DNA of 64,000 bases from Iphione sp. A-MEVVRFRX5 (GCA_976226885.1 OZ320315.1:40858001-40922000), one strand, 5' to 3'. Shown: positions 250 through 64,000, counted from the stretch's first letter. Made by a program: numbers and translations. Notes: a model not told the origin generated them from the sequence alone.

Positions 250-1800
250 ATGTAATCTACAGAATTCCCATCCTTGGTATCACGTTTCCCCTACTTACAA
301 ATACCTCTCACCTCTCAATTCTAAGGAGGGTAAACCCAAGAGTCTCCTTACGGCTAAGAAGGATTTCCTAGTCTTGGATGTACCTATTGCTACCAGCTTG
401 GCAAGCGTTTTGAAAGCAACCTCAGGGCCATCCATTTGCTGCTTGCTTTTGAAGATTATTAATGGGAGTATGAAAGCTTTAAACAGCCTCATTCTTTCCT
501 GTACATTTAGGTAGTAATCACATTTACTCAGCATATAATATAGCCTCTCTGCTTTGTCTTTCTTTTCGTCATATCTGCTGATTGCTTCCAGCTCAACTTA
601 TTATCAAGATGGATCCCCAGAAACTTACAATCTTGAACCTTCTTAATGGTGCTACCCGACAGCCGTATTTTGAAATCTAGGCTAGTTGACTGCCCCAAAA
701 CCATGTATCAGGTTTTATAACTATTCAGAAGGAGGCCATTAGACACCCAATATGATTCCACATCCCCTTTTGCATTTTGACGCCATAGCATTACTTGCTA
801 CATTGGTCACTGTTATATTATCCACATGCAGCATCAGCTTTCCTAGCAGTAGATTTGCTGGCAACGTATTCATTACAACGGAGAACAGCAAGGGTCCCAT
901 GAGGCTACCCTGTGGCACCCCATATCTAACTGGCAAAATTCAGGAGGAAGTGCTATTGCACCAAACAAATTGAGCTCTTCCTTCAAAGATAGGATGAAAA
1001 CCACTTGAGTGCCACCTGCTCTACCCCTGCATCACAGAGTCTATGGAGCACCCTCTGAGGCCGAATTGTGTCAAAGGCTTTACTCATGTCACGAAATACC
1101 GCTCCCACGTGCGTTTTATCATCCAGAGCTTGGTACACATTTCTTAGGAATATTGCTATAGCAGTGGTGGTGACCCTATCCCCATGGAACACGTGCTGTT
1201 CATCCCTGAAAAAGCCACTCACTTTCAGGTTCGTAGTCAGTTGAGAATGGACGATACATTCAATCAATTTTCCCATACTGTGTATTATAGAAATGGGGCA
1301 ATAATATAACAACTTAAGGGTTAACATTGCTTGAGGAGTGGAGTTACTCTGGATGTTTTGCAGCAGGTACATAGTCAGTTGACAATGGACATGGAATCAA
1401 TTTTCCCATACTGTGTATTATAGAAATGGGGTGATAATTTGAACAACTTAGGGGATAACCTTTCTTGAAGAGTGCGGTTACTATGGATGTTTTCCAGCAC
1501 TGCAGAAATTCTCTATCGGACAAAGTTTGGTCCCTTGCCGGCTCAATGCAGATAAGGAGGGCATCTCTCAATACCGCCATTGGTATATCGTTGATGCCTC
1601 TCGGTTTTCGTAGGTTCACAACCAGAATAAGTTTGCTCAATTGCGATACTGTAACAGGTTTAATACCCCAGTGCCCTGATCGTTGGTTTGGACCTAAAGT
1701 AAAGCTGAATTGTGAGGCGATTGGCTCTGGCTGACCGACGAAAAACTCATTTAGGGAATCTGGGACCTCGGTTCGGTTCAACGATACACCCTCATGGATG
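250..1800 (-). mobile_element. Decayed non-LTR retrotransposon (CR1/L2-like LINE) ORF2 reverse transcriptase fragment
   Basis: Broken minus-strand ORFs carry colinear LINE RT motifs: NYHPISIIHSMGKLI (1344-1781), VGAVFRDMSKAFDTI...LKWFSSYL (983-1372), YGVPQGSLMGPLLF...HVDN (739-936), RLFKAFILP (295-534). Multiple frameshifts and stops. Confidence 0.85.
1230..1470. repeat. Internal tandem duplication (period about 135 bp) inside the LINE relic
   Basis: caattttcccatactgtgtattatagaaatgggg occurs near 1265 and near 1398, with similar flanks (tagtcagttga.aatggac upstream, aacaactta downstream). Confidence 0.75.
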
Positions 1801-4399
1801 AACTAAATTTCAGGCCTCGCTCTGTTTTTCATCAGAATGTCGGAGTTTATTAGCTGCCAATATCCTTTATTATTGGAGAAGTGGGCCTTAAAAAGTAAAC
1901 CACAATATATACTTGATGAAGACATTTTTGTGTCTCATTCCTCATTTTCCCATACAGTTACATATTGTTTTTTGTCCTGCAAATATTGGCAAAGGTTTTT
2001 GTTTCAATGTACTAAAATACTCCAAAGTGCAGACGGATTGGCAAACAAAACATTTGACAGTGTAATATCTAGAGTGGAGGTCGATACACTCTCTAAACAA
2101 CTATGACACTTATCATTAGGAGACTCCTATGTATATCGTCTGGGAATGCTCAGGACTTCTGGCCGAAACGAAGTGACACGCAGATGTGAAGACATAAATA
2201 TTCGTGACATAAGCTGGTCAATGATTCACCTCTCCCTGCCCTGCTGGCGGCAGTGTAAGACGTATAAGACTCTGGGAGATGGATTGCAGGCGAGACAACA
2301 CACAGGGCCCCACCCTCGCAACCTGCCCTCCCCCCACCGCGCATGAAGCCCTCAGAGCAGCCAACCCCCCCTACCTCAAGCGCCCTCTTTTGGCCATTCA
2401 TATCCGCCAGGCTTATCTTGCTGCTTAGTCATTCCGGCTGCGTTTCCAGGGTAGCGTCCAATTTCAAATCCTGACTATAGGTCTCCGTTATTGACGGATG
2501 CTTGTTAGAAGGCAGGGTGGGAACGGCGTGGGATGGGGTGGGGGGAAGGGGGGCAGAGCCAGAGACGTGGAACTGACTGAGAGTACCGATGACTGCCTAC
2601 TGCAACTGTGTGATCTTTGCTGAGCTAAAATGACTGCCTTGTCAAAGAAGAAAAAGCAATTTGCCACCCCGCGGGGAGATCGGACAGGCGCGGCCATCGA
2701 AAGAGGTAGTTGTCGGAGGTGTGCAGCAGAGGGGGGGGGGGGGCGGGGAGGGAAGGGGAGGGGAGAGAGTGGGGGCTAACAGAATGTTGAGTAGTGCAGT
2801 GAGAGGCTGCCGTTGGCTGATGCTTGCTTTTTGGCTGCTGCATTTGGCTGCCGGCTGTGGTTGATCTTACGTCTGGTTTCCCTTAGAGGCTACATGCCTA
2901 TATTTCATGATTCAGACCTTGATTATTAATATTTGCCTGCTATTTACTTTCCACTCTTATCGTTACACGTTGGGTACACCAACTACTGACAAATATTCGA
3001 ATGGATCTCAGCTTAAAAAAGGTCCTCCGTATTTCATTCACAACTTAACGTAGATTGAATGGGTTAAGTATAATTTTCATCACAAAAAAGCTCAAGAAAA
3101 AAGCTCAAGGTTCCTTCATCTATCAATTGGCTGCTTTCGGTAAAGCATCGTTTACGATTAAATGATGTATGCGACATGATCGTTGTAAGGAAACATACCA
3201 GACGGTGATGACACCCCGCATTGGAATTAAATAAGGATCTACTGGAGTCCTCATGGCCTAAGATAGCTTCTTTGGAATGAAGTATTTCAAGGATTTCTCA
3301 AGAAATATCGCAACGAGGAATATTTATATACATGTATAAACGTTCATGTGTATGCCCTTGCACCCGACCTTTATATAACCACTTTAAGATGGTCAAACGC
3401 CTTATTTTTGGAGGAATATACATAATGTATATAATGGAAGCAAATATACATATCTATCGTATACATGTTCAGATATTATACAAGGAAGGCGATGATAACT
3501 GCCACGCAATACAGACTGTTAAAAATAATCCTAGTGTTATTATATCAACGTTGGATAGACGGCTTTGAGAGTCACCCGTGCTGGTTTACTCTGTATTTTG
3601 TCGATGGTTCAGCCTCGAGAGGCAGGCATTATTGTTTTCTTTGATTTGATTACGGAGAAGCAATCTGCAGAGCCCTTGCCTTAAATCTACTATAAGTGCC
3701 TTCTTCTACGCTTCTAATACTACGTAGTGTGTACCTGTTCTTTATTCTTTTTGTGTGATGCATTGGGTACTTTGTGTTTCATCACAATCAATTTGGTCGG
3801 GAGATATCTGTGTAGTGTGATGATGGTCACAAATAACATTTTTCTACCCATATAGTGCTTCATAGAGGAGAGTCGACTGAGGGATCTTGGCCAGTGTTGA
3901 CTTTGCTGTGTGGCTGTGATTTCGGTACATTTGGCTGTGATTGGGTGCAACTCTCCACTGCCATTGCGTCGTGTTCCTTCATGTGGCATACTCTGAACGT
4001 TTTTTTTGTCCTTTGTGTTGTTAGCAAATGGAACCAATGCCATGCCATTCTGCGCCAGCTGATAGTAATGACACTTCCGCGATGCCCGTTTATCTGTTGA
4101 TAAGAATATTTACTGAAACTCCTAACTTCCTGCTAAAATACTCGCGGCTTTGAGAGGCATCCACACTATCTTCAGCTTTGGCTTTTTTTTAATGATGTAC
4201 ATACCACTTAAGATTTTCTGTCTACACTGAAAAGTTGAAATATCTCAATTCTTCCCTTCTTTGCTGTTGGGTCTCGCAAAATATACATGTAGGGCATTCA
4301 TTTCTTTACTCCTTAGATTTAATGCTATTATCTTAGTCCATCGTATGGTTCTTGCCACTGATTTTACTGCTGGACGTTGGTTTCGCTGGCCATGTCCGG

Positions 4400-15222: not shown

Positions 15223-16284
15223 CTATGTGATCGTCGTCGAGTGGCGATAGAGTATCTTGTCACACGAGCTGAGACACTTCTGCACGGTGTCGTTGACGCC
15301 CTGAATGTCTCGCTGGTGTGTGGCGGCGGCAGCGGTCGCGGCGGCAGCAACGGCGGCTGCCGCGCTTGGATTCTCGGCGCTGGCGCTGCGGATGATAGGC
15401 GTCGGCATGACGCCCGATACTGCCGCCACGCACGAGCGGGCGTCCAGCGCCGTGGAGGTGCTCGCCGTCGTGTCAGAAGCCCCATCGAGCAGCTCGACGG
15501 ACGAGCGCGGCGTGGTGAGGGTGGAGAGCGAGCGGCGCACCTGCGGCGCGTCGGCCGACTGCGTGCGGCGCGGCCAGCTGGAGCACTCGGCCATCGAGCG
15601 GTTCCACTCGGCCCGGATGGCGTTCAGCTTCTCCTGCGTCTGAACGCGCGTCCGCTCCATAAGGTCCTCCAGCGAGCGCTCTATGTCTGACTCTGTACGG
15701 AAACTGAGGCGCACCCTGGAGGGAGCGCTGGCGCTACTGTCGCTGCGAGCCAGTAGGGGGCTAGGCGATGAGCCGCGTCCCATCCCCGGCGGCGGCGCGC
15801 CGTCAGGCAGCGGTGTCGACGTCTGGCGGCGAACCGGAGGCCTAATGGCGATGGGCGAACTGGCGCCCGGCCAGCTGAAGCGTGTCCGGCCCAAGCCGTT
15901 TGGGGCAACCGGAGAGGCCATGCTGGTCGGTGCGCCGCCGCTGGTCGCCGGCGGGGATTGCATCGAGTGCTGGCGGTAGGCGCGGCTCCAGCTGGCGCTC
16001 TTCTTTACCGCCGGTGACATCACTAGCGGGCGTTTCGGCGACGAGTCGAGGAACTTGGTCAACTCGGGCGGAATGCCGTTAGCGTCATCGCCACGGGGCA
16101 GCCGTAAGGTGCGCTGGATACGGTCCCACAAGGTCTCCCTGCTACGGCCCTTACGAAACGTCCACGTTAAGGTGAGCGTGATCTTGTGGTGGCCGTCAGT
16201 GATGTTCCACTTGAGGCCGTCTCGATACTGCTGCATGTGGAGCAGGAACTGAATGACCACCCTGGGCAGGCCGTACGTCGACAT
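15223..16284 (-). CDS. Intronless host ORF, 353-aa protein of unknown function
   Basis: Uninterrupted GC-rich frame in AT-richer surroundings. ATG at 16284 has a good context (ccagccATG); the track start at 16299 is a GTG. Ordered-looking N-terminus MSTYGLPRVVIQFLLHMQQYRDGLKWNITDGHHKITLTLTWTF, S/P/R-rich middle, amphipathic segment ESDIERSLEDLMERTRVQTQEKLNAIRAEW, C-terminus VQKCLSSCDKILYRHSTTIT. Family not recognised. Confidence 0.78.
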   Translation of the reverse strand: MSTYGLPRVVIQFLLHMQQYRDGLKWNITDGHHKITLTLTWTFRKGRSRETLWDRIQRTLRLPRGDDANGIPPELTKFLDSSPKRPLVMSPAVKKSASWSRAYRQHSMQSPPATSGGAPTSMASPVAPNGLGRTRFSWPGASSPIAIRPPVRRQTSTPLPDGAPPPGMGRGSSPSPLLARSDSSASAPSRVRLSFRTESDIERSLEDLMERTRVQTQEKLNAIRAEWNRSMAECSSWPRRTQSADAPQVRRSLSTLTTPRSSVELLDGASDTTASTSTALDARSCVAAVSGVMPTPIIRSASAENPSAAAAVAAAATAAAATHQRDIQGVNDTVQKCLSSCDKILYRHSTTIT

Positions 16285-17519
16285 GGCTGGTGACGTCACT
16301 TACGTCAGCGGCGCCTCAGTTTACTGTCTCTTACTTCTTCTGTCTTTTGCTGATATATTATGCTTGTTGCAGGGTTTTCCGATGTTTATTATTTTGTCTT
16401 CTTCTTTCAACACAACACCGCTGGAAGCTTTGGTTCAATTTTCTTAACCGTTTTCTTGGTTGCTAGGCGTTATCACCAATAGAGTTCCTCAGGCGGACTA
16501 CCTCTCCTCGAACTTCATGATGACGACTGTTGTCAGGCATGACATTGATCAGATTCTTTTTCAGAAGGAAACTTAAACTCTTAAACTTGTGAATATCGAG
16601 TGTAAAATTGTTTTGGAAACTGTGTTGCTTTATCTCGTTGATATGTTTTCGGCCTGTGATTGTTAGACTGTTATGTTGCTACGTGTGAGCTGGAATGGTT
16701 GTTGATGTCAGTAGTTGTGATGCCAATTGCAACAAGTTGTTTCGGTTGTGTCCTGTCAATTTAATCAGTATTTAATGATGGGTGATACCCCTGAGTTGGA
16801 GGGAACTATAAAGTGACTTCCAAGTCAGCTGCAGACCCACGACCTCTACGCATAGAGGTGTGAAAACCGAAATAGAAAACGTCATGGGTGAATGTGTATA
16901 TACGATCATTCATGTAGGTGTAAAGATGTGTGAGCTGGGTGTGCTGTGTTGCGTGGACGTTCAAGCTGTATCAAAGTTTTGGCTCCTGAGTTATGAATTT
17001 ATTTATGCGCCCTGAGAAAAGCATGCAAGTTAGTACATGCTACAATGCACCCATGTACGATTTAGTGCCTTCTTCTGTGGATTGTCACGCGAGTATTTCT
17101 AGGTGTACCCCCCGGTTTTAAAACGATTCTGGTAAGAATGAGTTAATCCTCTTTGCTCTGTCAGCGCTTTCTTTCCTTGATAATTCGTAAACGTTGACAT
17201 GGAACTTAGCGTGAAAATGAAAATAAGCAGTATGCAGTTTGTTGGTTATCAACGGCATCCTTATTAAACATGGTGAAAGCGGTGTGCTAGAGATCGCCCC
17301 CATCTTAAAAGTACAATCCTTTGAATTCTCCAAAAATTCTGAAACACCATCTTCATTATAAGGATCATTTACTTTCAAGCAGGCAGGCCGCGTCTCCAGA
17401 CGCGAGGACGTCCCAAAGTAATCCCATGCACATTTAAAAAGAAACGAGTGAGTTTAAAACGTAGCGCTGCAGGGATATCGCTCAGATACGATCTTAACAG
17501 AATGCAGTATGAACAGTAT

Positions 17520-55379: not shown

Positions 55380-55592
55380 TGTTGGCCTCCACCATAATGA
55401 AGACGACATAAGTTGAGGAGAATGATGTTTATTGCTGAAGAGCTTCGACACAACTGACAGCGAATCCAAAATACAACGCATTTATATAGCAAATTGAAAC
55501 CCTCCGCAGTATAAATAATTCCCTCCACGGTGTACCCTCCGCACCCTCCGCACCCTCCGCTAAATGGTCCTCCGCTCCCCCCCGTCGCTACA
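55380..55592 (-). repeat. 3' LTR, 213 bp, TG...CA
   Basis: Minus strand begins TGTAGCGAC and ends GGCCAACA; first 125 bp on the plus strand match 63876-64000; TATATAAA at 55488-55481; AATAAA at 55433-55428. Confidence 0.93.
55501..55575 (-). promoter_or_regulatory. U3 cluster of five GCGGAGG motifs upstream of the LTR TATA box
   Basis: CCTCCGC at 55501, 55536, 55545, 55554 and 55569; the middle three have a 9-bp period. Confidence 0.75.
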
Positions 55593-55608: not shown

Positions 55609-55920
55609 TTAATCCTGACCCAGGATACTATAACATTCATGAACCTCAAATTCAACATCAGCGGCGGTAAGAAACTGTAAACGAATATCAAATTCATCAA
55701 TCTGGAGGCCTAGGGGCACTGGCCGCACCCCTTTATACCAGTCCGAGAAGAGAAACTCGGTCTCTCCCTCCGGGAAGCCGTCCTCTTCCGTTCTTTGTAA
55801 GCAAACACGACTTTCAATTACTACGCACATTCTACCTCGCCTCCGCGCTACTCGGCTTTTACCCACCGATATTAGAATTGTCCACCCCCGGGGGGGCTGA
55901 GTTAATGAATTTACCGGCCT
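55609..55920 (-). CDS. 103-codon open frame, in frame with the zinc-finger ORF after one TGA; acidic/aromatic tail (or separate 73-aa ORF from ATG 55830)
   Basis: Frame is open from 55920 to TAA at 55611-55609, 3 nt before the PPT; ...EEDGFPEGETEFLFSDWYKGVRPVPLGLQIDEFDIRLQFLTAADVEFEVHECYSILGQD. Confidence 0.5.
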   Translation of the reverse strand, partial: RPVNSLTQPPRGWTILISVGKSRVARRRGRMCVVIESRVCLQRTEEDGFPEGETEFLFSDWYKGVRPVPLGLQIDEFDIRLQFLTAADVEFEVHECYSILGQD

Positions 55921-58780
55921 TCAGGAGGCCCAACGCAACCAGTCCGAGAGGGTAAGTGTCCGTGAGTGACTGCCGTGGTGGCCCCCGTCCGGGGCTGGCA
56001 ACCGCGGGAGCCCGGTCTCCCCAGCGGCGGAGCTGGAATCTTCCTCTGAGCCTGTCGACAAGGGTTGGCCCGTTCGGGGGAGAGCTGTACCGCCCCCCGC
56101 CCGATTGCTGGGGCCCGGTTCGGCGTGGGAGGAGGTCCCGTTACCACCCTTCCCGTGTTCGTCACCCTCCGCCGACTGGAGGGGCACCTTCCTTCTACCA
56201 TGGCTAGGGCCCTGTTCGATGTGGGAGGCGGGCCCGTCACCGACCCTCCCGTTTTCATCACCCTCCGCCGATTGGAGGGGCACCTTCCTTCTAGGCTGGT
56301 CAGGACCTGGCATGGCAGGAGGGGAGGTTTCAATCCCCCCCCCCCCTTGTTCGTCACCCTCCGCCGATTGGAGGGGCACCTTCCTTCCGTCGTGGGAGGT
56401 GGGCCCGTCACCAACCCTCCCATGTTCGTCACCCTCCCCCGATTGGAGGGGCACCTTCCTTCTAGGCTGGTCAGGATCTGGCATGGCGGGGGGGGGAAGC
56501 TTCAGTTCCTCCCCCCCCTTGTTCGTCACCCTCTGCCGATTGGAGGGGCACCTTCCTTCCGTCGTGGGAGGTGGGCCCGTCACCGACCCTCCCGTTTTCA
56601 TCACCCTCCGCCGATTGGAGGGGCACCTTCCTTCTAGGCTGGTCAGGATCTGGCATGGCGGGGGGGGAAGCTTCGGTTCCTCCCCCCCCTTGTTCGTCAC
56701 CCTCCGCCGATTGGAGGGGCACCTTCCTTCCGTCGTGGGAGGTGGGCCCGTCACTGACCCTCCCGTTTTCATCACCCTCCGCCGATTGGAGGGACACCTT
56801 CCGTTCCGTTGGGCTGGGGGCTGAGGTGGTTTGCCCCCCGGCCTTGCGGGGGGAGGGCTCGGCCTTCCCGCTTCTGGACCCGTCACCTCCTTCCGACGAC
56901 AGAGGCGCGCCAGGCTTACTCATGGGGTGTTGACGCCTCGCTTCCCAATCCAAGACCTGGCGCGCGATGCGCCTCGACTTCTCCGCCTCCTCATGACCAA
57001 CGGGAAGGAGGGGTTCGTCCACAGGGTCGGCCTCCGCTTTTGCGCCTTCAGTGTAGCACAGTTCTTGGGACGGTTTCTCCGGGGTGGGCCCGTCCTCGCT
57101 GGACGGAATGGGGTGGCCAACGAGGGAGCCAAAGGAAGACTCGCCCCCCTCCGCAGCCCCCATCGGTTCAGCGCCCTCGGTGTTTCCTCCCGGCTTCTCT
57201 GGAATCGTGGCGGGTGGGGCCACCGATGGAGGGTTCGCTGCGGCCAAGAGGGTGTCCATGTCTACTGCCCCGAATAAGTCCTCCAGAACTTGGGCGGCTT
57301 GGTCGACCTCAGCCTGTGGCGCCTTCGGCGCCTCGCGTGCGGAGGAGACCAGGGTCTGAATCGCAATGCTCAGTTCATCTGGGGTCGGAGGCATCGTAGG
57401 AGTGTGGAGTAGGGGTGACGGTACCGACCTCGAATGAGTGGGAGTCTTGAGGAGCGGGGACATGGCCTTATCCGGGAGACCCCCACTCTTGTCTGCGACG
57501 AGCCCGGCTCGGGCAACCATCGGCCGACCAGAGGGGGCTTCTGCTCGCTGCCCCCCCTTCAGTAACTCCGGCGTGCGGAGGGCTGGCTTGGCGGGGGTCA
57601 GCCCCAGGCCCTTCCCCGGGGTGACTGGGCTGGACTCCGACCGACTGGGCCGGAGATCTGCAGTTCGTATGGCGGCCTCTAGGTCTCCCGCGGCGGACAG
57701 CAGCTTCTCCAGGGCGGTAGGCGTCACAGGAGGGTCAGCGGTTTCGGCGGCATCGAGGCGGTTGATGGCCTCTTGGAGTCTGGCCTTCATCCCCTGGGGC
57801 GAGGTGGGGGGGGCGGATGGCTCACCCTCCCCCTCCTCGTGGACGAGCTGGCGGACGCGAGGGTGCGTGGGGGGGTCGACTGCTGCCTCCGCCTCCCCAA
57901 GCTTCCTCTTCTTTGTTGAGGAGCTAGTCGCCGATGCCTTGGTGGTAGCGCCCCCCTCCGCGCTTACCCCCTCCGTCTTCTTGGTGGGTGTCAAGCTTTT
58001 AATCGTCACCTCCCCCGCTGGAGCGGCCTTGACGGGGGTAGACCTTGTCACCCTCTTCTCAGGTTCGTCCCCCTTTTCCCGTCGGGTGGTCTTCTTGTGC
58101 ACCCGGACCCAAGCTGCCGAGGGAGACCGGGAAGCGGGAGCACTCTCCTCCGACGAAGTCAGGATCGCCGGTCTCCGCCTCGGGCTCTCTCGTCGCCCTG
58201 TCGAAGTGGACGCCTGCGGTGAAGTCGGTGGCCGGCATGGAGGTCCCAGTGACGGGGTGGGCAGCGGTGGTGCGGAGGGCTCACTGTCCGACGAGGAGGG
58301 AAGTCTGGCTTTCTTCCTCTTGGGTGGAGTGGGGGTACTGTCCCGGCGGCGTGACTTCCGTTGCTCGTGTGACCCCTCACCCCGCTCTCGGCTTCTCTTC
58401 TTGTCCTTGTGTCGGCCACCACAATGAGATCTGGCTGAATCGGAGGTCCCACTCCCCGCTTCCCCCTCGGCCTCCTCAGGGCGGCGGAGCCGCCCCCGCA
58501 AGGTGGTGGACCCCGGCTTCTTGTAAAACTCGTAATATTCTTCCTTCATTTTTGGCAGCAGTTTCTGTGCCCCTCCCTCAGCCAGGTGGGTCTTCGAGTC
58601 CAGGTGCCGCCTCAGATCGTCCTTGCGCATAAAGATCTTCCCATCGCACTTCTCCCCTCCGCATCCCCACGCGAAGCCCTCAGAGCTGTGGGTCTGTACA
58701 TGCCGCTTAAGGTTGTCCTTGCGGTCGCAGACCTTCTTGCAGAGTGGGCAGGGATACTCGTCTTTCTGGCTCTTCGTCAT
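55921..58780 (-). CDS. Putative separately expressed two-finger C2H2 protein (769 aa as assembled to 56471; about 952 aa if the G9 tract at 56488-56496 is G8)
   Basis: gacaccATG at 58780; finger 1 CPLC-x12-HVQTH; finger 2 CGGEKC-x13-HLDSKTH (58756-58586); NLS-like KKRSRER, PKRKKAR and KKRK; long S/P/T/E-rich region; repeats. Confidence 0.65.
56155..56805. repeat. Tandem array of 8 units (75/96-bp spacing) encoding RKVPLQSAEGD repeats
   Basis: Core tcaccctccgccgattggaggggcaccttcc; motif positions 56166, 56262, 56358, 56433, 56530, 56605, 56701, 56776. Spacings are multiples of 3 except one of 97. Confidence 0.95.
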
Positions 58781-61700
58781 GGTGTCGAATGATGAGCATC
58801 CCCTGGGGCGAGCGTCACTTATATTCGAATCTGGCGCCGCAGCTTCCTCCGCTCGATTTTCATTGGCTAGTAGCTTCCCTCCGCATCGCGGCCCCCTCCG
58901 CATTCGTCTTCCGCCCTTCTGATTGGCCCCTTCATTTTGAACTCCAACGGCCCTAGGTTCGCGGAGGTCCTCCGCCCTTTCCTCAGTCCTCCCTCCGCTT
59001 TTTTCGATGCGGAGGGTGGCCACGACCGCGCTATCTTCCCTCGGGGCCCCTGGCTTCAGGAGGTCGGCGTGTACTACTCTTTCTCGCCGCCCCTTCTTGA
59101 TGCGATAGACGGCGGCCGAGAGCTGCTTGCTGATCCGCCATTTGCCTTGCCAGTATCGCTGTAACTTAGGAGATAGCCCTGGCTTTTTCAACGGCAGGAA
59201 CAGGTACACCTCCTCCCCTACCTCGAAGTTCCGGGGCCGCACTCGGTGGTTGTACCAGTCGGTCTGGCGCTGGATTCCCTCCCCTAACCGCTGGTTGGCC
59301 AGCTGATGGGCTTGTTTCATCCGTTCCATCTGCTCCTGGACGAACGGTCCAACCTCCGCTCCTCCCTCCTGTGGGGGGCCTCCGTAAGCTGCCTCAACGG
59401 GGAGTGTAGTCTCCCGATTCAGGATGAGGAAATTTGGGGAGAAGCGAGTGGTGCGGTGGGGGGTCACCCGGTACGCAGCCGTTACAAACGGTAGCCGAAG
59501 GTCCCAATCGCGTTGGTCTTCCTGGACCGTCGTTGCGAGCATATGCTCTAGCGTTCGGTGGAACCTCTCCACCACTCCATCGGCTTGGGGATGGTAGGGG
59601 GTGGTCCTGGTGTTCTGAATTCCGCAGCCCTTGAGCAGTTGGGCCACTAGTTCTGCCTCGAAGTTCCGGCCTTGATCGCTGTGGATTACTCGGGGGGGCC
59701 CGAACCGACAGATCACCTCCCTCATCATCACCTCCGCAGTAGCTTCCGCGGTTTGTTCCTTGAGTGGGAAGGCTTCTGCCCATTTGCTAAAATGATCCCC
59801 TACCACCAGGATGTACTTGTTGCCCCGGGGCGTCCTCGGAAATGGCCCGGCGATGTCCACGGCTACCAACTCCCAAGGTCCCGGACTCTGGCGGTGCTGC
59901 AGTAGAGTTCGTTTCCTCCGACTGGGCCTCTTCGCCTCCAGACAACGCGGGCAGGCCGATCCCCATACAATCAAATCCCGAGTCATTCCCGGCCAGAAAT
60001 ACCTCCCCCGGAGGAGGCCAGCCATTTTCTGAGGGCCGAGATGGCCGCCCATGACTCCCTGGTGAATCATCGTCCAACACTCTTTTTGTAGGGGAGGGGG
60101 GACCCAGGCTTGCCACCAGGCCCTTCCGTCTTCATGTTCCCACCTCCGCACGATCAGCCCTCCGCGGGCCTGTAGTCGTTTCCACTCCCCTACCAGCCGC
60201 CGCTCTTCCCAGCTGGTCTCTGTCTTAACCTCGGGGGGGCCTTCCCCCCGCTCCAGCCGTCCTAGCAACTCGCCCCCAATCGGGTCCGCTAAGGTGTCTC
60301 TAGCCATGGTGGAAGATGAAGGAGCCTCCGCCCTCACTTCCGTAGTCAGAATAGCGGTCGTCTCCTCGGGCTCTCGTCGGCCGCACTGTTTACATGGCCG
60401 TCTGGACAACCCGTCGGCGTTGTTGTGTACCCTCCCCGGCCGATGTATGACTTCCACCTCTCGACAGGCCAGTTCTTCTAGCCAGCGTGCCATTTGGCCC
60501 TCCGGCTCTTTGAAGTTCATGAGCCACCGGAGGCTCCCATGGTCGGTACGCACCACTACCTTCCTTCCGCTAACGTAGGTCTTGAATTTCCGGAGGGCGA
60601 AGATTACAGCTAGCAGCTCCTTCCGAGTTACGCAATAGCGTTGCTCGGGCTTAGTGAGGGCCCGACTAGCGTACATCAGCACTCTCTCCCGGCCGTCCTG
60701 CTCCTGGGAGAGGACTGCACCTACTCCCTCGCCGGAAGCGTCAGTGTCTACAATTAGGCGCCCCTCCGGTTGGGGGTATCCCAGGATAGGTGCGGAAGTT
60801 AGGCAGGGCTTGAGATCTTCAAAGGCGGCTTCCTCTTCACTTCCCCACCGGAACTCTGCTTCTTTGTCCAACAGTCGATGGAGGGGGGCGGCTCGCCGCG
60901 CAAAGTCTCGGATAAACGAGCGGAAATAAGAGGCTAAACCCAGGAAGGCACGGAGACCGGCCAAGGTCCCCGGCACTGGCCACTCTGCTACGGCTTGAAC
61001 CTTCTCCGGGTCTGGGCGGACCCCCCCCGCACTAACGATATGGCCGAGGTACTGTACCTGTTCTCGGAGGAGCTGGCATTTGCTAGGTTTCACCTTGAGA
61101 CCGGCGGCCTCCAGCCGTTGGAGCACCTCCGCCAAGCGGTCGCACATCTCCCCCACCGTCTTGGCCATGATGATGACATTGTCCAAGTACACAAGGCAGG
61201 AGTCCCCGATCAGACCGCGGAGGACGACATCCATCAATCGTTCAAAGGTGGAGGGGGCGTTGCAGAGACCGAAGGGCATGACCCGGAACTGGTAGAGTCC
61301 GGACGGGGTGCAGACGGCTGTCTTCGGGCGGTCCTCTGGCCGGACCGCTACTTGCCAATACCCAGACGCCAGGTCAATCACCGTGAAGTACTTGGCTCCG
61401 GCCAGCGCATCCAGGGTGTCATCCACGCGTGGTAGGGGGTAAGCATCCTTGCGCGTTCGCTCATTGAGCTGTCGGAAGTCTATACAAAACCGCCATTCCC
61501 CACTCCGCTTCTTGACCAGTACCACCGGTGAGGCCCACGGGCTGCTGGAGGGTTCCAACACCCCTTGTCGTACCATTTTTTGGATCTCCGCCTCCCCGAT
61601 GCGCATTTTATGGGGTGGAAGACGTCGGAATCTCTGTCGCACTGGGGCTGCCTCTCCTATATGAATCTCGTGTTCCACGAGAGTGGTGCGCCCTAGATCA

Positions 61701-62740
61701 GTACCCTCCCTCTGGAAGGCGCGGCGGTGAGTCCAAAGCACCTGCCTCAGCTGCTCCCGCTCTTCCACCGTGCTTCCCGAGGGCAGCTCGGACATCAGCT
61801 CCTCGATTAGCCGTGCGTAGAGGGGCTCCTCTGCCTCACCCTCCTCCTTAGCTGGTACCTCTTCCACCGCCTTAAGTTCGCCTGGATCGTCTTGCCTCCG
61901 CAGTTCCTCCTCGACCTCCTCCGCCTCCGCCACCTGCGTCCCCCTCCGCAGCCAGACCTCCCCCTCCGCCACATTCAGACAGAGGAGTTGGGCCCGTCCA
62001 TTGTCCACGTTAGCCACTGCATGTGGCACTCGCACCCCTGCCCGCTGTTCCAGCGCGGGAACCGGTCCTACGACCCATTCGCCCCCTTGGGCCTGACCGA
62101 TGGTCACCGAGATAAGGGTCTCGGCCCGGGCTTTCAGGCAGGTGTCCTGGGCTAGCTGTACTCGTTCCGGTCGCGCTCTGTTCTTCCGGATGGTGATTGT
62201 CCCGGCGGCTGTGTCCACTACAGCCCTCCTCCGGCGGAGGGCGTCCATCCCCAGGATGGCAGCTTGCTCCACCTCTGCAACCAGGGCCTCCATCGTCCAG
62301 GGTGTCTCCCCGAAGACCACCGTCACTTCGGTCCTCCCCACACAGGGGAAGGGCGCCCCGTTGGCGGCAATGATGCGTCGCCCTGGTAGGACCGTGACAG
62401 GCAGCCGGAGGGCCTCCGCCGTTCGCACCGCGATGATGGTGGTTGAGGCTCCTGTGTCCACCAGCCACGTCATTTCTTGGCCTCCGTCTTTTCCTCGTAG
62501 CCCTAGCGCCCCGGTAAAGGGGTCCGCACGCCCCTTCAGGACGGTGAGGGCTTCGTCTTCCTCCTTCGGCGGCATGGCCGCCCTCTTCTGGAGCCAGTCA
62601 TTGAGCTGCTCCTTGGGGATGGACTCCTCCGCCGCCTCTGCCTGTCCCCTTACAGGGAGGGCGGCACGTCGTTTTCCGCCAGCTTCGGCCGTGAAGGGCA
62701 ATCCCGCTTGAAATGCCCCTCCTTCCCACAGCGGAAGCAC
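56471..62740 (-). CDS. pol: Pol polyprotein (PR, RT, RNase H, integrase) fused in frame to a C2H2 zinc-finger/disordered extension
   Basis: LVDTGAS (PR); VIDLASGYWQV, MPFGLCNAP, YLDN (RT); TDAS...ELLA...TDH (RH); H-x6-H...C-x2-C, VDIAGP, SDQG-x35-E (IN). No stop after IN. Probably expressed by -1 frameshift from gag. Confidence 0.95.
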   Translation of the reverse strand: MLPLWEGGAFQAGLPFTAEAGGKRRAALPVRGQAEAAEESIPKEQLNDWLQKRAAMPPKEEDEALTVLKGRADPFTGALGLRGKDGGQEMTWLVDTGASTTIIAVRTAEALRLPVTVLPGRRIIAANGAPFPCVGRTEVTVVFGETPWTMEALVAEVEQAAILGMDALRRRRAVVDTAAGTITIRKNRARPERVQLAQDTCLKARAETLISVTIGQAQGGEWVVGPVPALEQRAGVRVPHAVANVDNGRAQLLCLNVAEGEVWLRRGTQVAEAEEVEEELRRQDDPGELKAVEEVPAKEEGEAEEPLYARLIEELMSELPSGSTVEEREQLRQVLWTHRRAFQREGTDLGRTTLVEHEIHIGEAAPVRQRFRRLPPHKMRIGEAEIQKMVRQGVLEPSSSPWASPVVLVKKRSGEWRFCIDFRQLNERTRKDAYPLPRVDDTLDALAGAKYFTVIDLASGYWQVAVRPEDRPKTAVCTPSGLYQFRVMPFGLCNAPSTFERLMDVVLRGLIGDSCLVYLDNVIIMAKTVGEMCDRLAEVLQRLEAAGLKVKPSKCQLLREQVQYLGHIVSAGGVRPDPEKVQAVAEWPVPGTLAGLRAFLGLASYFRSFIRDFARRAAPLHRLLDKEAEFRWGSEEEAAFEDLKPCLTSAPILGYPQPEGRLIVDTDASGEGVGAVLSQEQDGRERVLMYASRALTKPEQRYCVTRKELLAVIFALRKFKTYVSGRKVVVRTDHGSLRWLMNFKEPEGQMARWLEELACREVEVIHRPGRVHNNADGLSRRPCKQCGRREPEETTAILTTEVRAEAPSSSTMARDTLADPIGGELLGRLERGEGPPEVKTETSWEERRLVGEWKRLQARGGLIVRRWEHEDGRAWWQAWVPPPLQKECWTMIHQGVMGGHLGPQKMAGLLRGRYFWPGMTRDLIVWGSACPRCLEAKRPSRRKRTLLQHRQSPGPWELVAVDIAGPFPRTPRGNKYILVVGDHFSKWAEAFPLKEQTAEATAEVMMREVICRFGPPRVIHSDQGRNFEAELVAQLLKGCGIQNTRTTPYHPQADGVVERFHRTLEHMLATTVQEDQRDWDLRLPFVTAAYRVTPHRTTRFSPNFLILNRETTLPVEAAYGGPPQEGGAEVGPFVQEQMERMKQAHQLANQRLGEGIQRQTDWYNHRVRPRNFEVGEEVYLFLPLKKPGLSPKLQRYWQGKWRISKQLSAAVYRIKKGRRERVVHADLLKPGAPREDSAVVATLRIEKSGGRTEERAEDLREPRAVGVQNEGANQKGGRRMRRGPRCGGKLLANENRAEEAAAPDSNISDARPRGCSSFDTMTKSQKDEYPCPLCKKVCDRKDNLKRHVQTHSSEGFAWGCGGEKCDGKIFMRKDDLRRHLDSKTHLAEGGAQKLLPKMKEEYYEFYKKPGSTTLRGRLRRPEEAEGEAGSGTSDSARSHCGGRHKDKKRSRERGEGSHEQRKSRRRDSTPTPPKRKKARLPSSSDSEPSAPPLPTPSLGPPCRPPTSPQASTSTGRRESPRRRPAILTSSEESAPASRSPSAAWVRVHKKTTRREKGDEPEKRVTRSTPVKAAPAGEVTIKSLTPTKKTEGVSAEGGATTKASATSSSTKKRKLGEAEAAVDPPTHPRVRQLVHEEGEGEPSAPPTSPQGMKARLQEAINRLDAAETADPPVTPTALEKLLSAAGDLEAAIRTADLRPSRSESSPVTPGKGLGLTPAKPALRTPELLKGGQRAEAPSGRPMVARAGLVADKSGGLPDKAMSPLLKTPTHSRSVPSPLLHTPTMPPTPDELSIAIQTLVSSAREAPKAPQAEVDQAAQVLEDLFGAVDMDTLLAAANPPSVAPPATIPEKPGGNTEGAEPMGAAEGGESSFGSLVGHPIPSSEDGPTPEKPSQELCYTEGAKAEADPVDEPLLPVGHEEAEKSRRIARQVLDWEARRQHPMSKPGAPLSSEGGDGSRSGKAEPSPRKAGGQTTSAPSPTERKVSLQSAEGDENGRVSDGPTSHDGRKVPLQSAEGDEQGGGGTEASPPAMPDPDQPRRKVPLQSAEGDENGRVGDGPTSHDGRKVPLQSAEGDEQGGGGTEASPPRHARS
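58785..59015 (-). promoter_or_regulatory. Internal Pol II promoter embedded in the integrase/zinc-finger linker
   Basis: GGGCGG (58977-58972, 58916-58911), GGCCAATCA (CCAAT at 58926-58922), AGCCAATGA (58866-58862), TATAAG (from 58823), Inr TCATTC (A at 58790), ATG at 58780; seven GCGGAGG motifs. Confidence 0.65.
62631..62677 (-). other. Putative -1 programmed ribosomal frameshift signal
   Basis: G GAA AAC (62677-62671), 5-nt spacer, then hairpin GCCGCC-C-UC-CCUGU/AAGGGG/ACAGG-CA-GA-GGCGGC (62665-62631); pol is in the -1 frame relative to gag. Confidence 0.7.
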
Positions 62741-63891
62741 CCGGTTCGACTGCCCGTTGCTGGACCTTGTTCCAACTGCCTCTCCAGCTGGTCTAGCTTC
62801 TTAGCGAGCCGGTCCAAAAAGTCATCTTCTCGTTTGGCCCGGGCGTCTCCCTCCACCGTCGACAGCGAGTGGCAGCCAGCCCTTCCGCCATAGGCCTTCC
62901 CGGTTGGTTCCCTTTCCCTCCGGCCCTGGAAATAGGCCTCCCCGAAGAGGGCCTCTGATACTGCCGCGCGGAAGTTGGCCACCCTCCGCTGCACCACCCA
63001 CTTCCTCACCTTCTCATCCGCAATTGCCTGGATGAAGCTATCCTGGCAGAGCTCATCTGCCCATTGTCCTCGAACCCCCGGGTACGCCCGTTTCACCAGG
63101 TTCTCCACTTCATCGGCCAGTTGGGATAAGTCGGCCTCGCCTTGCTTGTGGGTCTTTAACTGCTGTTTAAATAGGTCCACCTGATCTGGCGACCGGAAGC
63201 GACTGCGGAGGGCCTCCACCAACTTCTGGTAGGCCCGTGGATCATGGACCCGCACGCCGGAGTTCCGCATGGTGGTCTGTGCCGGACCACGGAGACTGAT
63301 TCCGAGATGAATGGCCTTCTCCTTGGCGGACCATCGATTAGCGGCGGCGGCGAGGCCGAAGTGGTGAAGGTAATCGTCAAGGTCCGTCGAGCCATCGTTT
63401 GGCTTGGGCTTAGCTCTACCCTTCCGGGGCCGCTCATCTGAGTCTTCTCCTGTTTCCTCTTCCTCCTCCTCCTCCTCCTCTTCTGACTCCTGGTGGGGGT
63501 CTTCCCCTTCGGGGAGTTCCTCTTCTCTTCCGGCTGGCTGTCCCTCCCCCGTGCCGGGGGCCCCCGCCACCCCGGGGTCCTCCGCAGGGTGGGCCCCTGC
63601 CGAGCCGTCTTCACCGCTCCTTGGGGGGGAAGCCGATTCCCCCTCGGTACCTTCGCCCCCTCCCCATAGCCTCGAAGGGGTGCGTACGGGGCGCGGCCTC
63701 CCAGTGGGCAGTTGCGCCTCCTCTCCCCCGTCGGCGTCCTCCGCAGTTGCCCTGCGGGTAACCCTCCGCGTCCCGGCTGCCGTGGCTGCTTTCTGCGGAG
63801 GGGGTGTTTGCTCCCTTTCGGGGCCTCGATTCGTCGGCCCCGAGGTTCCCCTCCGCATCCCACTTCTGACACCAATGTTGGCCTCCGCCAT
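62650..63891 (-). CDS. gag: Gag protein, 413 aa
   Basis: Acidic/low-complexity N-terminus; capsid-like DLDDYLHHFGLAAAANRWSAKEK...LRGPA; nucleocapsid CFRCGKEGHFKRDC (CCHC). Confidence 0.93.
   Translation of the reverse strand: MAEANIGVRSGMRRGTSGPTNRGPEREQTPPPQKAATAAGTRRVTRRATAEDADGGEEAQLPTGRPRPVRTPSRLWGGGEGTEGESASPPRSGEDGSAGAHPAEDPGVAGAPGTGEGQPAGREEELPEGEDPHQESEEEEEEEEEETGEDSDERPRKGRAKPKPNDGSTDLDDYLHHFGLAAAANRWSAKEKAIHLGISLRGPAQTTMRNSGVRVHDPRAYQKLVEALRSRFRSPDQVDLFKQQLKTHKQGEADLSQLADEVENLVKRAYPGVRGQWADELCQDSFIQAIADEKVRKWVVQRRVANFRAAVSEALFGEAYFQGRREREPTGKAYGGRAGCHSLSTVEGDARAKREDDFLDRLAKKLDQLERQLEQGPATGSRTGCFRCGKEGHFKRDCPSRPKLAENDVPPSL
63857..63874 (-). other. Primer binding site, tRNA-Leu
   Basis: TGGTGTCAGAAGTGGGAT, 1 nt from the LTR end, is complementary to the metazoan tRNA-Leu(CAA) 3' end ATCCCACTTCTGACACCA (recalled, not searched). 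Confidence 0.88.
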
Positions 63892-64000
63892 AATGAAGAC
63901 GACATAAGTTGAGGAGAATGATGTTTATTGCTGAAGAGCTCCGACACAACTGACAGCGAATCCAAAATACAACGCATTTATATAGCAAATTGAAACCCTC
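63876..64000 (-). repeat. 5' LTR (R/U5 part and TATA; rest outside window)
   Basis: 123/125 identical to 55380-55504; the full LTR is expected to end near 64088. Confidence 0.95.

Follow-up and report, generated by a model that had tools for sequence, protein, structure and literature searches.

The window considered here is the whole analysed stretch of 64,000 nucleotides. Its segment 55380-64000 is filled by a Ty3/gypsy LTR retrotransposon (Metaviridae) on the minus strand, the end of which lies just beyond the window. The LTRs are 97.7% alike over 213 bp, the insertion is bordered by a GTAT duplication, and an 18-nt primer-binding site (PBS) and a purine run before the 3' LTR are present. 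Both gag with a CCHC knuckle and pol with the order PR-RT-RNaseH-IN, the combination required for Metaviridae, were recognised with Pfam. The main parts of the element are as follows:

63876..64000, extending to about 64088 beyond the window (minus): 5' LTR, 213 bp, TG...CA ends, 4-bp target duplication GTAT
63857..63874 (minus): primer-binding site, 18 nt, which we take to be of the tRNA-Leu type
62650..63924 (minus): gag ORF, 424 codons, CCHC knuckle
56471..62800 (minus): pol ORF, 2109 codons (PR-RT-RNaseH-IN, linker, two C2H2 fingers, S/P/T-rich tail)
58688..58750 (minus): C2H2 finger 1, helix RKDNLKR, predicted to read GAG(G)
58586..58663 (minus): atypical C2H2 finger 2 (C-x4-C...H-x5-H), helix RKDDLRR, predicted to read GCG
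55609..55920 (minus): C-terminal domain, about 110 aa, shared by the finger families in conserved form (also at L052:8630-8965)
55380..55592 (minus): 3' LTR, with five GCGGAGG in U3 (55575-55507), TATATAAA at 55488 and AATAAA at 55433-55428

The gag frame is already open within the 5' LTR (63876-63924, minus), and a U5 ATG just upstream of the PBS (ATGGCGGAGGCCAACA) overlaps the GCGGAGG at the LTR end. Searches of the element's own genome covered 1.18 Gb in 89 contigs. Family A, to which the window copy belongs, is high-copy (93-100% identity among 40 of the 210 DNA candidates scored). The families are young and numerous, with LTR identity of 92.7-100%, reaching 100% in 9 of 27 insertions; insertion flanks (L051-L090) carry 4-bp duplications and are often ATAT-rich. 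An arachnid, a bivalve and a fish are the sources of the named integrase relatives, which makes an animal the probable host.

Several other features were observed in the window. An antisense perfect splice donor, GAG|GTAAGT, is located at 55945-55960 (plus), some 350 bp inward of the 3' LTR boundary, and may mark an antisense transcript. Fragments at 986-1802 (minus) resemble a decayed non-LTR (LINE) reverse transcriptase, and a GC-rich open frame of 358 codons with an internal Met (15226-16299, minus) is possibly a host exon.

The finger protein and its probable routes of expression

Finger 1 scores above the PF00096 cut-off. Finger 2 has atypical spacing (model pLDDT 69) and is followed by a conserved helix/strand to about 58526. 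The finger ligands are invariant or nearly so in 11 aligned copies, and the pair evolves as a classical C2H2 pair does, its ligands and base-contact residues (-1, 2, 3 and 6) being under purifying selection (pN/pS of the fingers 0.04).

The C-terminal domain has invariant W, P, W, W and E residues and is confidently modelled as an alpha/beta sandwich (pLDDT 87). In the window copy, a frameshift and a stop in the tail separate it from the finger ORF. Pfam, PDB sequences, the Atlas and protein databases gave no usable match to it, and Foldseek returned no fold at E<=0.001; the best match (VIA) had Z 7.0 and rmsd 4.0 over 94 aligned positions, and a new fold is not implied by this result. No activation domain was recognised in the finger protein.

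Two routes to the finger protein could be considered. The linker between integrase and fingers is an open frame in 10/10 families examined (shuffle probability <0.002 in 7), and young copies of every main family can be read without interruption from protease to tail. Since the linker frame is kept open, a Pol-fused form is probably also made. So far as the standalone form is concerned, 78 of 83 loci have a Met no more than 40 codons from finger 1; judged by the reading frames, the fused form probably exists besides the standalone one, and both seem to be kept.

In families G, H, I, J and K, which have a longer linker, the finger Met is preceded by a splice donor and a pyrimidine-rich acceptor in 15 of 16 elements (L103, L105, L106, L112, L113, L115, L116, L121, L145, L147-L150, L153 and L154; the length of all these introns is 1 mod 3). 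Such a pair was found in the linker of 0/3 A/B/E and 0/6 L/M/N elements. The splice pair of the sister clade, lying before the finger Met, is an independent sign that a finger protein is made apart from Pol. Families I and H have a TATA near the integrase end. Upstream of the splice pair there is a CTCF-like AGAGGGCGC motif, which in I and H stands 28-43 nt before the TATA.

The cassette in the integrase-finger linker

In family A the linker contains a promoter-like arrangement, the components of which are listed below:

58781..59047 (minus): IN-to-finger linker, 89 codons, containing the cassette
58846, 58878, 58895, 58961, 58969, 58992 and 59009 (both strands): seven GCGGAGG/CCTCCGC, predicted finger sites
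58920..58928 (minus): distal CCAAT box GGCCAATCA, in families A and D only
58860..58868 (minus): proximal CCAAT box AGCCAATGA, followed by 9 nt and GCGGAGG in families A, B, D and E
58818..58823 (minus): TATA box TATAAG (TATAAA in B and E)
58787..58792 (minus): initiator-like TCATTC, matching TCAKTY, predicted start A58790
58778..58780 (minus): in-frame ATG, from which a standalone finger protein is predicted to start

The original prediction had described this segment as a textbook internal promoter hidden in an open frame. All its motif positions were recovered on the minus strand, and the seven GCGGAGG/CCTCCGC lie where it had placed them. The TATA does stand at -33 from A58790, as claimed, but TATAAGTG has one mismatch to TATAWAWR and is therefore good rather than perfect; the predicted start falls 31 nt after the TATA, the spacing of the LTR promoter. 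The two proposed NF-Y boxes, AGCCAATGA and GGCCAATCA, are the sole matches to RRCCAATSR in the element and two of four in the window. The Kozak ATG at +11 is present (ATG 58780, GACACC-ATG-A, with A at -3) but lacks the +4 G. In view of this and the TATA mismatch, "textbook" is a slightly generous term for motifs which are themselves real. The family A leader would be only 10 nt, which is short for efficient initiation.

Two further elements of the prediction found no support in the comparison among families. GGGCGG occurs at 58916 and 58977, in agreement with the GC boxes proposed, but one copy overlaps the palindrome described next, and the other, which D copies lack, has no positional counterpart in B or E; GC boxes as independent elements are unsupported, their positions not being kept outside A. 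Similarly, the palindrome at 58961-58975 is real, but the dimeric binding read from it is unsupported, because its left half is not conserved (missing in D, E and 4/8 young B copies) and the U3 sites are direct repeats. B and E have a different inverted GCGGAGG pair with a 13-nt spacer, which A lacks.

Seven sites fall within 231 bp here, where the density in the remainder of the interior would lead one to expect 1.06 (Poisson P=1.2e-4), and no other 231-bp segment of that interior holds GCGGAGG so densely. Within the 64 kb of the window, only the motifs at 58866 show the CCAAT-TATA-Inr geometry; over 532 kb of interiors of elements (both strands) the pattern has 28 matches, all at this place in families A, B and E.

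Protein searches of the same genome led to families B and E, in which RT-IN is about 67% identical to that of A, and to the older family D. Loss of the motifs in sister families that keep the fingers had been named as evidence against the promoter; the motifs are retained in B, D and E with fixed spacing, and the prediction passed this test. In all four families the linker includes CCAAT-N9-GCGGAGG with differing spacers, TATAA(A/G), TCA(T/C) about 31 nt after the TATA, and an in-frame ATG 30-36 nt upstream of finger 1. Single cassette elements are missing from a few decayed copies. TATA and RRCCAATS are found together in the linker of 9/9 A/B/E elements versus 0/26 others, among which a TATA lies far upstream in 7 and RRCCAATS occurs in 2. 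The LTR promoters have the same spacing from TATA to an Inr-like (T/C)CAGT as the internal cassette.

The encoded peptide changes around these motifs. Only 14 (B) and 19 (E) residues are identical to the 89-residue A linker, compared with 45 and 38 of 78 in the fingers. The residue before the Ile encoded in TATA varies (N, A, S, R, C or G) and the third base of its codon is constantly T; at the CCAAT box, the exchange of GCC AAT for ACC AAT (Ala/Thr) leaves RRCCAAT intact. In three independent pairs, one per family (A, B and E), synonymous divergence pS is 0.095 in the linker versus 0.232 in RT-IN (Fisher 1.6e-5), and pN/pS is 0.78 in the linker, 0.04 in the fingers, 0.07 in the core and 0.19 in the tail. 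Differing sites amount to 3/148 motif positions versus 49/503 others (P=0.0015). Low linker pS together with pN/pS of 0.78 means that the DNA is constrained and the peptide barely so. This outcome of the proposed check of DNA against protein conservation supports the prediction, and the description of the peptide as a non-conserved linker holds, since its versions are weakly similar and nearly neutral.

A second comparison used 40 distinct A/D copies, 20 duplicate loci having been dropped. TATA and Inr are intact in all 40; each CCAAT box is retained by 39 copies, and the sites by 34-37. Variants shared among copies occupy 4/73 motif columns versus 65/179 others (P=1.2e-7). Because best matches were chosen for this set, the absolute level of retention is too high, and the contrast between motif and non-motif columns is less affected. 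When synonymous codons were redrawn, the full pattern had a probability of 2e-5 to 1.2e-4 per family, values which are optimistic because the pattern was defined from these same sequences. On this comparative evidence, the linker holds a real, conserved regulatory cassette, which very probably acts as an internal promoter.

GCGGAGG arrays and predicted finger specificity

The sites at the putative internal promoter are present as predicted, but the 7-mer is by no means unique to that spot, the original prediction having omitted copies elsewhere, including those of U3. Within the window, 50 of 56 GCGGAGG copies are in the element, and the 55 kb of host DNA contain 6. Elements carry 55-69 sites each, and in 4/4 elements GCGGAGG is over-represented against synonymous shuffles more strongly than any other 7-mer (23-31 seen, 5-7 expected). 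U3 arrays consist of 5-8 GCGGAGG in direct repeat without a CCAAT, and CCAAT is likewise absent from the U3 of the 3' LTR of the window copy. The last U3 site stands 19-20 nt upstream of the TATA in 6/6 LTRs. In B and E, GCGGAGG is also placed between TATA and Inr of the LTR and 11 nt upstream of the internal TATA. Since the same sites form the U3 arrays, the LTR promoter is as likely a target as the internal one. In the family A tail, tandem repeats (window 56125-56800) each include CCAAT-CG-GCGGAGG and could constitute an enhancer-like array in coding sequence.

The specificity of the fingers could be approached by comparison with engineered modules, in which RKDNLKN reads AAG and RSDDLVR reads GCG (PMC7317221), and RSDNLVR reads GAG (PMC5260015). 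Finger 1 of the element has the helix (-1 to +6) RKDNLKR, and finger 2 has RKDDLRR. Fingers of this kind are read antiparallel to the DNA, and Asp at position 2 specifies a following G or T. Likeness to the modules and this code taken together give GCG-GAG-G as the predicted site, which the seven sites match.

The match could be followed in further finger-bearing gypsy families of the same genome, obtained with the P0198 finger, a distant relative, as query (two degenerate loci, L066 and L069, were dropped, having no finger in the expected frame). A metagenome scan with the same finger gave one spurious bacterial match only (L102). Finger 2 keeps R..D..R in all eleven families tallied, and finger 1 differs. 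GCGGAGG is enriched in RT-IN of 9/9 A/B/E elements (9-19 seen, 1.7-3.7 expected) and of 0/24 elements with other finger-1 helices, a set that excludes J, which has no intact RT-IN. Most LTR arrays of the other-helix relatives differ from GCGGAGG; in other clades, the enrichment is confined to LTR and linker, leaving out RT-IN. The motif is thus tied to the families with that helix, and the element's fingers in all likelihood bind GCGGAGG.

This association bears on the least probable explanation, in which a host factor of the Sp/KLF/EGR type binds GCGGAGG and the finger match is coincidental, or the motifs reflect codon artefacts or RNA hairpins: many coding copies do read Ala-Glu in frame and GGGCGGAG resembles Sp sites, but the motif follows the RKDNL.R helix within one genome, the linker sites occupy all three frames and both strands, the LTR arrays are non-coding, and the hairpin candidate was rejected (RNA fold of the linker z=0.59, no Rfam match), so that this explanation is highly improbable.

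Across the families, the code was compared with U3 triplets, one element being taken for each. In A, B and E, GCG is followed by GAG in 21/23 cases. With Arg at finger-1 helix position 3 (L, M and N), the middle base is G in 24/30, and in N, where Arg6 is lost and position 6 is Lys, the first G drops to 1/9. The J U3 has GCA in 6/9. Several mismatches to the code were recorded: I, J and H have Asn3, which predicts A, yet C stands there in 12/16; G retains GAG despite Gln-1; and the GTGCA arrays of K U3 (L145-L147) are unexplained by the GCG prediction for finger 2. CGCAG repeats were observed in the K linker of the same loci. Judged by these arrays, only part of the distant families agree with the recognition code. 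Three groups, A/B/E, L/M/N and G/H/I/K, emerge in the tree with support 1.0 apiece (J is not in the tree); with about three clades and one or two internal changes, the covariation of helix and motif is no formal test of coevolution.

Outside this genome, 22 of the 120 integrase relatives listed bear a Cys/His finger downstream of integrase, in many cases directly preceded by a Met. A separate gypsy Pol branch from other organisms (P0155, P0161, P0163-P0166, P0173, P0181, P0182, P0188 and others) has Met, C2HC and C2H2 after integrase, and some of its proteins have a second finger pair at the C-terminus. A search for linker plus finger among long proteins gave no match at E<=0.001, and in a profile search of representatives the matches were filled by unrelated multi-finger proteins only.

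A putative self-activating circuit and its alternatives

The original interpretation is supported in part, by motif spacing, DNA constraint and correspondence of site to helix; dimer binding and independent GC boxes lack such support. In the reading that we consider the more probable, with some reserve, the internal cassette makes a standalone finger protein activating itself and the LTR. Host NF-Y and TBP would provide basal activity of the internal promoter. An RNA of ~3.4 kb would run from about 58790 to the poly(A) signal of the 3' LTR, AATAAA at 55433-55428 being likely the end of this subgenomic transcript. Translation from ATG 58780 would yield, in unbroken copies, a protein of about 1050 aa comprising the fingers, basic NLS-like stretches, a disordered S/P/T-rich middle and the folded C-terminal domain. 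By binding the seven linker sites it would establish positive feedback, and by binding the 5-8 sites before the LTR TATA, in a U3 devoid of CCAAT, it would turn on the full-length gag-pol RNA. The same finger domains would probably be made as a Pol extension too, the linker frame being open. The transcription start, the binding and the sign of regulation in this circuit are inferred.

The sign in particular admits other readings: sites spread through RT-IN, and between TATA and Inr of B and E LTRs, fit anti-silencing or repression equally with activation. It is possible, though unlikely, that promoter and binding are real and the protein is a VANC-like anti-silencing factor, which coats the element and keeps it unmethylated or open instead of activating promoters. 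VANDAL elements are plant DNA transposons, and the element described here is an LTR retrotransposon with C2H2 fingers rather than VANDAL-encoded. VANC itself, encoded by VANDAL transposons of Arabidopsis, is a sequence-specific binder, and its tandem targets differ among related elements (PMC5735166). Short, often tandem motifs differing between related families are found here as well, and the large number of sites per element, their density in A/B/E RT-IN (4-6 times expectation), the CpG contained in GCGGAGG and the retention in finger families of a folded C-terminal domain of no known family would all suit such a function. On the other hand, other clades show their enrichment in LTR and linker, not in RT-IN, and the densest clusters are directly before both TATA boxes, with the fixed position of the last U3 site already mentioned. 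VANC also differs in binding non-coding regions, and demethylation has been demonstrated for it.

A negative regulator, made from the internal promoter and blocking the core promoters of LTR and cassette for copy-number control (Ty1i/p22-like), is a good deal less probable. Ty1, an LTR retrotransposon of yeast, does have an internal promoter in an ORF and an internal transcript yielding a truncated product that acts as an inhibitor (10.1101/176248), and the B and E sites between TATA and Inr or 11 nt upstream of the internal TATA are where a repressor could act. U3, however, consists mostly of these sites and TATA without CCAAT, which leaves little else to drive the LTR, and the families are young and numerous. 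Ty1i also lies in gag, and p22 inhibits particle assembly and is no DNA-binding regulator.

Still more doubtful is a role of the fingers solely as an integrase extension binding own cDNA or chromatin, the cassette serving as an enhancer or decoy without a separate mRNA. The frame open from protease to tail would accord with it, but an enhancer needs no TATA-Inr-ATG spacing, yet this spacing is kept in A, B, D and E. Moreover, the flanks of 27 insertions contain 1 GCGGAGG in 33.6 kb, and a choice of insertion site by the fingers, with targeting to GCGGAGG, was therefore rejected.

For the self-activating circuit, the closest known system is that of foamy viruses, in which a promoter with basal activity in the 3' coding region drives the self-encoded DNA-binding Tas/Bel1, which acts on the internal promoter (IP) and the LTR (PMC7390438; PMC12789967). 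As read from the sequence, the layout here would be the same. Differences concern the host element, which is Ty3/gypsy, the place of the promoter (in the pol extension, not env), the regulator, which is a two-finger C2H2 protein in frame with integrase, and the sites: one repeated 7-mer is predicted here, whereas the Tas targets of LTR and IP have little sequence in common. Pfam found no env or Tas domain, detecting gypsy-type gag/pol and zf-C2H2 only. By analogy, the element would work like the foamy-virus IP/Tas circuit, but it is no member of that group. CERV (C. elegans Cer1) likewise has an accessory regulator in the polyprotein region and a subgenomic mRNA, but its RNA is spliced and the regulator exports genomic RNA, without C2H2 fingers or DNA sites (PMC10309623).

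The usual view is that LTR retrotransposons depend on transcription factors of the host. Foamy viruses have been called unique in having a dual promoter together with a DNA-binding activator of their own (PMC7390438). Among the papers listed by searches of the open full-text literature, none was seen to describe a gypsy element in which C2H2 fingers behind integrase go together with matching sites in the LTR and a promoter inside the element; term searches in PMC6338049, PMC13228809 and bioRxiv 10.64898/2026.08.24.746577 likewise found nothing on such gypsy finger elements in the text available.

A wider proposal is evenly poised between acceptance and rejection. A broad animal Ty3/gypsy lineage would carry its own sequence-specific transcription factors, with at least 11 families in this genome, each helix having a private LTR array and forming orthogonal self-activating circuits. 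The hidden routes inside pol would differ (intronless TATA/CCAAT promoter versus intron-containing unit), and the whole would be Tas-like independently of foamy viruses. The helix/site pairs of the eleven families, if true, would be a natural data set of finger-site coevolution. With its two fingers, 7-bp site, 250-bp cassette and eleven natural helix/site pairs, the system is compact enough for direct tests by binding and reporter assays.

If the self-activating circuit is true, foamy-type regulatory logic also arose in retrotransposons, in the form of a finger protein, its cognate sites and a promoter overprinted on pol. This would explain the coexistence and continued activity of many related families in one genome, and ready-made sites for a factor encoded by a transposable element could spread through the host.
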